64,000 nucleotides of DNA. Origin: a bacterium. Its GTDB lineage: Bacteria; Patescibacteriota; Minisyncoccia; UBA6257; MFKM01. Below, in pieces: positions 24,914 to 25,331 of the stretch (position 1 is the first letter of the stretch; each line of letters opens with the position of its first letter). Made by a program: the position numbers and the translations under genes. Under the pieces are notes generated by a model. It was not told where the DNA came from, did no database searches, and saw only the letters and a list, made by a program, of their open reading frames with translations. The DNA is taken from NCBI GenBank assembly GCA_030693325.1, contig JAUYAV010000011.1, positions 1,368 through 65,367 on the forward strand, in the 5' to 3' direction.

Positions 24914-24965
24914 GTTTATTGATTAATATTTATTGGACGACCTTGGCTGGCCTGGGAAGGGGAAA

Positions 24966-24994
24966 TAAAAACCCCGCTCTGACGAGGCGGGTTG
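24966..24994 (-). promoter_or_regulatory. hairpin plus U-run (minus strand aacccgcctcgtcagagcggggtttttatttcc) in the leader ~50 nt upstream of the pilin ATG; terminator- or attenuator-like
   Basis: read from the sequence. Confidence 0.35.
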
Positions 24995-25105
24995 GCCAAA
25001 CTGTTGTTCAAATCAAAAACTACCTTGATTAAAAAGGCGACCGTAAGAATCAGGAGAAGATTGATGACCGCTAAGCGGCGGACTTGTTTACTGACTCCGC
25101 TTTTG

Positions 25106-25160
25106 CTCTCTCTCTCTCTCTCTCTCTCTCTCTCTCTCTCTCTCTCTCTCTCTCTCTCTC
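25106..25160. repeat. (CT)27 dinucleotide microsatellite in the divergent murB/pilin intergenic region
   Basis: 55 nt of uninterrupted CT. Confidence 0.95.
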
Positions 25161-25231
25161 TGCGACCCGATGGACAAAGATTGGAAGAAGTTAAATAGTT
25201 TCATAATAAAATTATAACATATTATATATTA

Positions 25232-25260
25232 ATGAAAATCAAAATAGATTTTGCTATAAT
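25232..25260 (+). promoter_or_regulatory. candidate murB promoter (-35 ATGAAA, 17-nt spacer, extended -10 TGcTATAAT)
   Basis: read by eye. Confidence 0.4.
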
Positions 25261-25331
25261 AAAAAAGGCAGGTAGCTGAGCACTCACTTAATAAAACAAA
25301 AAACGGAGGTCACCACTATCTGCCTTTTTCT

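Follow-up and report, generated by a model that had tools for sequence, protein, structure and literature searches.

A perfect (CT)28 tract separates murB from a large lectin-domain pilin gene in the genome of a Patescibacteriota bacterium, and we consider it probable, at roughly 60%, that this tract is a contingency repeat which changes length by slipped-strand mispairing and acts on translation, by frameshifting a small gene that probably gates the pilin. The window, i.e., the whole stretch of 64,000 nt analyzed here, carries the tract at a length that places the conserved part of this small gene out of frame. The initial annotation had singled out the repeat as a phase-variation candidate tied to a pilus or adhesin gene, and this association is strengthened by the comparisons below, while the anatomy it proposed, with the repeat in a promoter or leader, gave way to one in which the tract lies in a small open reading frame (ORF). 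The elements of the locus, with positions counted from the first letter of the window, are the following:

22274-24913, minus strand: gene for an 879-aa protein of the prepilin type; residues 5-27 match Pfam N_methyl, and residues 410-559 form a Laminin_G_3/ConA-like lectin domain.
24916-25161, minus strand: conserved part of the small ORF, in a frame other than that of the ATG, reading (RE)n-SKSGVSKQVRRLAVINLLLILTVAFLIKVVFDLNNSLANPPRQSGVFISPSQASQGRPININQ with a transmembrane helix, up to a stop codon at 24918-24916.
24963-24991, minus strand: hairpin CCCGC(c)UC-GUCA-GAGCGGG followed by GUUUUUAUUU, from a terminator scan, inside the small ORF at codons NPPRQSGVF.
25088-25204, minus strand: small ORF as assembled, in the OFF frame, with ATG at 25204, 15 codons, (RE)9 and a premature stop at 25090-25088.
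25106-25161, CT on the plus strand and (GA)28 on the pilin strand: predicted hypermutable (CT)28 tract, translated as (Arg-Glu)n.
25211-25238, minus strand: sigma70-like promoter of the small ORF/pilin unit, with TTTTCA, 16 nt and TGtTATAAT (extended -10), i.e., 10 of 12 matches plus the TG.
25332-26243, plus strand: murB, divergent from the pilin gene.

Tandem Repeats Finder describes the tract as a perfect array at 25106-25161 (period 2, 28.0 copies, 100% matches, score 112), so that the long perfect CT repeat reported earlier stands, while its size has to be corrected from 55 nt and 27 units to 56 nt and 28 units. In a regex census of the 64 kb window, the second-longest dinucleotide run counted 4 units and the longest homopolymer 9, in agreement with the earlier remark that the window holds no other microsatellites, and the distance between 28 units and the next value of 4 excludes a chance origin of the tract. 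The count of 28 units comes from one metagenome assembly and may be off by a unit, in which case the small gene would be ON. In an independent assembly (Logan, SRR13727537), the flanking DNA is identical and the contig begins inside the tract: such a break is expected for a repeat longer than the k-mer of the assembly, and confirms a long tract, though not its exact length. Because both flanks of the tract are homologous, in the same order, to two related loci (L012 and L013), the join across the repeat is not chimeric. The composition of the tract was also informative. Across the genes of this genome, GAG accounts for 19% of Glu codons and AGA for 25% of Arg codons; both are minority codons, yet the tract is pure GA on the coding strand, which indicates a repeat at the nucleotide level and not a choice of codons. 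Judging from this purity, the tract appears to behave as a nucleotide repeat homogenized by slippage, and (Arg-Glu)n is probably not what is kept at the protein level.

Read along the pilin strand, the locus consists of a promoter, ATG 25204, 15 codons, (GA)28, ~190 nt, a TAA codon at 24918-24916, and the pilin ATG at 24913. The TGTTATAAT promoter is conserved upstream of the small-ORF start in four loci, and ATGTTATAA(T) is invariant across the window, L012, L013, and L018. The initial annotation had placed the tract in the promoter region or leader of the pilin gene; this placement no longer holds, since the tract lies downstream of the sole sigma70-like promoter on the pilin strand and inside a conserved small ORF. 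A scan of the interval from the tract to the pilin ATG returned no further sigma70-like site on the pilin strand, and a separate weak promoter for the pilin is possible. Since ATG 25204 is the 7th nucleotide after the -10 box, the small-ORF mRNA would be leaderless, which fits a genome in which genes with a Shine-Dalgarno-like motif are this rare: only 2 of the 50 long ORFs in the window have one. TATAAT occurs ~6-15 nt before many ATGs, and this pattern suggests that leaderless or short-leader mRNAs may be widespread in this genome.

The reading frame of the small ORF is set by the number of repeat units. At 28 units, translation from ATG 25204 yields a 38-aa product, MKLFNFFQSLSIGSQ(RE)9QKRSQ (ORF listing and frame simulation), which in the frame simulation ends at a stop 174 nt upstream of the pilin ATG. 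The conserved body is in another frame, which contains a TGA at 25203-25201 and no start codon ahead of the tract, as read directly in the sequence; its own stop (24918-24916) comes 2 nt before the pilin ATG, and a tblastn self-match of the small protein in the window covers 25092-24919. Given a 2-nt unit, the start codon and the membrane-spanning body share a frame at one in three tract lengths. Specifically, in simulations across 20-35 units, a full-length product (90-100 aa) was obtained only at 20, 23, 26, 29, 32, and 35 units, with 26 or 29 GA units giving the full protein of 94-96 aa. With its 28 units, the assembled allele is OFF, and a single additional unit, or the removal of two, would bring it back into frame.

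Its homologs and the codon-position pattern of its variation identify the small ORF as a genuine gene. On NCBI contig L012, which encodes P0003, a homolog of the pilin with 56% identity, the upstream region is homologous throughout to that of the window and includes the same ATGTTATAAT box, the start codon and 15 codons, a (GA)11.5 tract, the conserved stretch, and a stop 7 nt before the pilin ATG. In L012, the small ORF is one intact ORF of 85 aa, and since this copy was reached via the pilin, it is unbiased as to frame. A protein search led to P0121, a called JGI protein of 85 aa with 76% identity to the L012 ORF, encoded right before a prepilin gene (L013), and P0122-P0125 came from a profile search. 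HMMER, run exhaustively over 1.84 billion representative proteins, identified seven family members, all with E <= 1e-10; the homologs of the small protein are P0121-P0125, P0131, and P0132, and called homologs span about 60-110 aa. In its layout, the small protein combines a short N-terminus with an (Arg-Glu)n tail, followed by a single transmembrane helix and by a C-terminal motif around NPPRQSG. Searches of Pfam, NCBIfam, and PHROGs with the small protein gave nothing above cutoff, only sub-threshold noise, and the family thus appears to be rare and previously unannotated. A tblastn search with the small protein against PLSDB plasmids and INPHARED phages returned no match, and viral contigs matched neither the conserved DNA pattern nor the repeat-free protein alignment.

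Pairwise differences between the loci fall mostly at third codon positions (e.g., 12/9/19 and 8/6/19 over the three positions), with many synonymous codon changes and with gaps in whole codons. The window copy retains all invariant residues of the family, and this lack of decay in the body indicates that the frameshift is recent or reversible and does not mark an old pseudogene. Within the body (SKQVRRLAVINLLLILTVAFLIKVVFDLNNSLANPPRQSG...), hydropathy peaks at LAVINLLLILTVAFLIKVV, a 19-residue segment with a mean Kyte-Doolittle value of 2.7 that is preceded by basic residues, which suggests a bitopic topology, with the N-terminus of the membrane protein on the cytoplasmic side.

The 879-aa pilin is the presumed adhesin controlled by this unit. 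It is identical to MDP3052476.1 (P0001) and scores 27.3 bits against Pfam N_methyl, compared to a cutoff of 21.2. As in class III signal peptides, a short basic leader is followed by Gly at -1, a hydrophobic helix, and Glu at +5: the protein begins with MDHPNNKG, continues after the cleavage site with FTLIELLVYTVIFSISVGVF, and is predicted to be cleaved between MDHPNNKG and FTLIELLV. With N_methyl, the Laminin_G_3/ConA-like domain, and the cleavage motif all present, and with murB (25332-26243, plus strand) opposite the pilin gene on the minus strand, the original description of an 879-aa lectin-domain prepilin divergent from murB was accurate. The same metagenome-assembled genome (MAG) encodes at least two further paralogous pilins (MDP3052656 and MDP3052754) in addition to P0008, so that together with MDP3052476 the genome has at least three or four pilins with a common N-terminal domain. 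The closest paralogs, P0004 and P0007, have 87% and 72% identity over the N-terminal ~350 residues, with different C-terminal modules. P0008 begins at about residue 164 of the fold, and may be an N-terminally truncated or silent copy, or part of a split gene. In P0129 (ENA, 649-nt contig), an unrelated ORF reading ...EERERERERESKGGSGFTLLELL, a GA-type tract lies directly before the prepilin cleavage motif, which hints that GA tracts beside pilin genes may recur elsewhere.

Comparing repeat length across relatives, a check suggested in the initial annotation, did reveal differences: the GA tract counts 28 units in the window vs 11.5, 11.5, 9, and 9 in related loci, which belong to different species and have intact frames, and it is vestigial or absent in the more distant members P0125, P0131, and P0132. 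Both ON (related genomes) and OFF (window) frames occur, in a data set where most homologs came from a protein search that returns intact (ON) copies only; the sample free of this bias consists of one ON copy (L012) and one OFF copy (the window). Tract lengths are identical between L018 and L019 and between L020 and L021, two pairs retrieved by exact protein match and thus blind to variants. A search of JGI metagenome contigs for exact matches to 32 nt from the 5′ end of the pilin coding sequence gave none, and a protein-pattern scan of metagenome contigs with the small-ORF alignment, a pattern saturated by low-complexity ERERERES, also gave none; no strain variants came from either scan.

An N_methyl prepilin gene follows the small ORF in every DNA context fetched, at a distance from the small-ORF stop of 2 nt in the window, 7 nt in L012, 6 nt in L013, and 14 nt in L018 and L019, and with an ATGA overlap in L020 and L021. 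Both small ORF and tract are absent beside the pilin homologs of L014, L015, L016, and L017, so that the small-ORF module is subclade-specific and not a general companion of these pilins. In other genomes (L012 514-1686 and 7229-7891; L013 30-770; L018 1077-3940), the module comes after a TraG/TrwB-like ATPase gene, and in L012, L013, and L018/L019 it lies near serine-recombinase or integrase genes, which suggests that the small-ORF/pilin module may move on integrative mobile elements.

The bacterium belongs to Candidatus Paceibacterota (CPR), in whose MAGs the nearest MurB loci are found; a 23S rRNA with a group I intron and a LOOT RNA in the window agree with this. Compared to the nearest species representative (L002, MurB 77% identical), the window has ~3.5 kb extra between an sRNA-like unit (described below) and the murB leader, and this extra segment consists of the pilin gene, the small ORF, and the tract. 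The corresponding slot, at 21785-25245 in the window, is empty in L002, contains a 499-aa pilin alone in L015, and contains the small ORF and the 879-aa pilin in the window; the slot pilin of L015, a Hainich groundwater relative, comes without small ORF and without tract. These differences in content identify the slot as a variable adhesin locus.

The proposed switch would operate as follows. Transcription from the TGTTATAAT promoter would yield a leaderless or near-leaderless mRNA of the small gene, and slippage of the tract in vivo, with length fluctuating within populations, would toggle the frame of that gene; from established biology of simple sequence repeats (SSRs), 28 perfect dinucleotide units are expected to slip frequently. 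The product hit directly by the frame is the small membrane protein, and the lectin-domain pilin would be reached only via coupling or polarity. We infer that the OFF frame would also lower pilin expression, possibly by two routes. On the one hand, ribosomes would no longer terminate beside the pilin ATG and translational coupling would be lost: since Shine-Dalgarno-like sites are few and the small-ORF stop is at most 14 nt away in all loci, the pilin plausibly depends on ribosomes arriving from the upstream ORF. On the other hand, the last ~175 nt of the small ORF would be left untranslated, and the hairpin with its U-run, located ~50 nt ahead of the pilin ATG, could then work as an intrinsic terminator.

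The hairpin consists of a stem-loop at 24991-24973, with 7 pairs, one bulge, and a GUCA loop, followed by the U-run GUUUUUAUUU to 24963, and has the GC-stem plus U-run form of an intrinsic terminator. The initial annotation had read it as an attenuator or terminator in the leader: a hairpin is indeed present on the pilin strand, but it is located inside the small ORF, and its fold of -11.4 kcal/mol in a 51-nt context is not above controls (z = -0.6 vs shuffles). It is found in L012, L013, and L020, and is weak in L018. The pairs are almost invariant, with one compensatory case among five sequences, so that covariation is uninformative. Conservation of the peptide NPPRQSG alone could explain that of the hairpin sequence, and the retention of the rare Gly codon GGG (12% usage) in three loci provides a weak hint of selection on structure; a role of the hairpin as a terminator is possible. 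The fold of the 305-nt leader shows no conspicuous alternative (antiterminator) pairing, and its stability (z = +0.34) led us to reject a structured RNA spanning the whole leader. A search of 24700-25500 against Rfam at E <= 10 returned nothing credible, hence the leader is not a known riboswitch or sRNA.

Combining these elements leads to a more specific scheme, which we regard as tentative and somewhat unlikely as a whole: a heritable, ribosome-gated terminator, in which the frame of a leaderless mini-gene would decide both the masking of the hairpin and the handover of ribosomes to the pilin ATG 2 nt further on. With paralogous pilins in the same genome, combinatorial and stochastic switching of adhesins in an episymbiont could follow.

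The main rival to a frameshift switch is a miscount or simple inactivation, i.e., an (Arg-Glu)n stretch that serves as a length-tolerant, low-complexity linker without any switching, and a frameshift due either to wrong counting of the repeat during assembly or sequencing or to a recent mutation that inactivated the gene in this one population. Homologs do translate the tract in frame as (ER)n, and short-read assemblers struggle with such a tract: the Logan contig ends in it, and the unit count is that of a single assembly. However, protein-level selection by itself would not maintain a pure GA run of minority codons, 28 perfect units are expected to slip often with two-thirds of the resulting lengths breaking the frame, and the downstream body without decay argues against an old pseudogene, so that we consider the absence of a switch unlikely. 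An effect at the level of the nucleic acid itself would account for the pure GA composition of the DNA in all five independent loci, whose proteins diverge by 25-50%. Triplex formation is well known for long GA/CT mirror repeats, and this 56-bp homopurine/homopyrimidine mirror repeat might form H-DNA or an R-loop, or its RNA might bind a factor, with a graded and length-dependent tuning of expression as the outcome. Such tuning seems quite improbable given that folding of the 305-nt RNA gives no structural signal (z = +0.34) and that the more distant members P0125, P0131, and P0132 have no tract, and the effect on the frame exists regardless.

A promoter-type switch as in hif, fim, or nadA, the mechanism initially proposed, would have tract length change how the divergent promoters of murB and the pilin gene are spaced or arranged, by analogy with the TA repeats between hifA and hifB. 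The tract does fall within the 418-nt divergent murB/pilin interval, but it starts ~50 nt after the -10 box on the pilin strand and stands ~70 nt ahead of the -35 box of murB. Moreover, L002 and L015 have conserved the promoter and leader of murB without having a tract, and in L012, L013, and L018 the tract is found downstream of the TraG/TrwB-like gene with no divergent promoter, making this mechanism highly improbable. A murB-related role of the tract was rejected on the same conservation of the murB promoter and leader in L002 and L015.

A frameshift switch at this locus would be a known kind of switch in a lineage for which our full-text search found none described. CT dinucleotide repeats in the 5′ coding region are found in sabA, babB, and hopZ of Helicobacter pylori. 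The H. pylori gene oipA (hopH) likewise has a CT repeat in its 5′ coding region, and slipped-strand frame shifts turn it ON or OFF (PMC10564699). Shared with oipA are a CT/GA tract in the 5′ part of an ORF, a frame-based ON/OFF state, and an adhesion-linked locus. Unlike in oipA, the tract described here is in a separate gene for a small membrane protein just upstream of the adhesin gene, is much longer at 28 units, encodes a cytoplasmic (Arg-Glu)n tail and not a signal peptide, and belongs to a CPR/Paceibacterota bacterium from an environmental metagenome.

A parallel in gene arrangement comes from Haemophilus influenzae, where expression of lex2B depends on the frame of lex2A. In this pair, lex2A is the SSR-bearing gene and lex2B encodes a glycosyltransferase (PMC3116884). 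As in lex2A/lex2B, a short ORF with the repeat precedes the effector gene; the H. influenzae pair differs in combining a tetranucleotide repeat with a LOS glycosyltransferase, whereas the locus described here combines a dinucleotide repeat with a pilin. To our knowledge, lex2A/lex2B has no embedded terminator-like hairpin. In hifA/hifB of the same species, TA repeats lie between the -35 and -10 boxes of overlapping promoters: the dinucleotide repeat, the divergent intergenic region, and the adjoining pilus gene are alike, while the tract here is transcribed and within a coding frame. In Neisseria, pilC, a gene needed for pilus adhesin function, has a poly-G tract in its 5′ coding region and is turned ON or OFF by frame. 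The 5′ coding position of the repeat and the frame dependence are common to both systems, but the pilC repeat is a homopolymer, is in the adhesin/assembly gene itself, and affects another protein family. Finally, as in trp-type attenuation, translation of a short upstream ORF could decide whether a hairpin and U-run form before the main gene; here, by contrast, the hairpin is inside the ORF and not after it, and the input would be a heritable frame state of the DNA instead of ribosome stalling.

A full-text literature search for frameshift-type SSR phase variation in CPR/Patescibacteria found none. These bacteria are thought to be host-attached, with type IV pilus-like fibres as the main candidate attachment organs. 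The small-protein family accompanies large modular pilins in all contexts fetched and had not been annotated previously. If confirmed, the frameshift switch would mean that the contingency-locus strategy is not confined to host-adapted pathogens but is also used by environmental ultra-small bacteria, a hypothesis that can be tested from existing metagenomic reads by counting GA units per read.

Several other features of the window were recorded. The 5′ UTR of murB includes a long hairpin at 25262-25329 (plus strand), with a folding energy of -20.7 kcal/mol and z = -3.56; all of 200 shuffles were less stable. L002 (3316-3380; MurB 77% identical) and L015 (2868-2933, minus strand) have the core AAAACAAAAAACGGAGGTCACC without any change, and the hairpin contains GGAGG in a genome otherwise without Shine-Dalgarno sites and has no Rfam match; from these sequence properties, it is a candidate cis-regulatory RNA of murB. 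On the other side of the pilin gene, a conserved sRNA-like unit is found at ~21630-21745 (minus strand) in the window, ~3150-3290 in L002, and ~4570-4700 in L015. It comprises a promoter (TTGACT-17-TATACT), ~100 conserved nt, and a terminator (CCCCTCCGACGCAAGTCGGAGGGG plus a T-run); the body is conserved, and the terminator stem varies between genomes.

A perfect 18-nt palindrome, GATATACTTAAGTATATC, occurs three times (21834-21851, 26291-26308, and 26458-26475) where none is expected; its copies bracket the pilin-murB block, and the Logan contig also ends in one. Two MITE-like units of ~130 nt (21488-21620 and 26626-26760) have inverted ends CCCCGTTAGAAA...TTCTRACGGGG, and the insertion of one of them is in the sRNA/promoter region, at a place taken by a different hairpin in L002. 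A tandem 9-mer, TAATTACAG (~4.6 copies), is present at 5120-5160, 7511-7551, and 17544-17584, with two of these arrays directly before the ATGs at 7559 (FtsW/RodA) and 17594 (PAP2). A single ORF of 2266 aa (9563-16363, plus strand) has both RpoB (Rpb2) and RpoC (Rpb1) domains, and looks like a fused RNA polymerase beta-beta′ gene based on this domain content. Within the 23S rRNA region (2401-6094), positions 5190-5416 are a group I intron, and a LAGLIDADG endonuclease ORF comes after it at 5621-6094; a LOOT RNA is found at 41574-41694.
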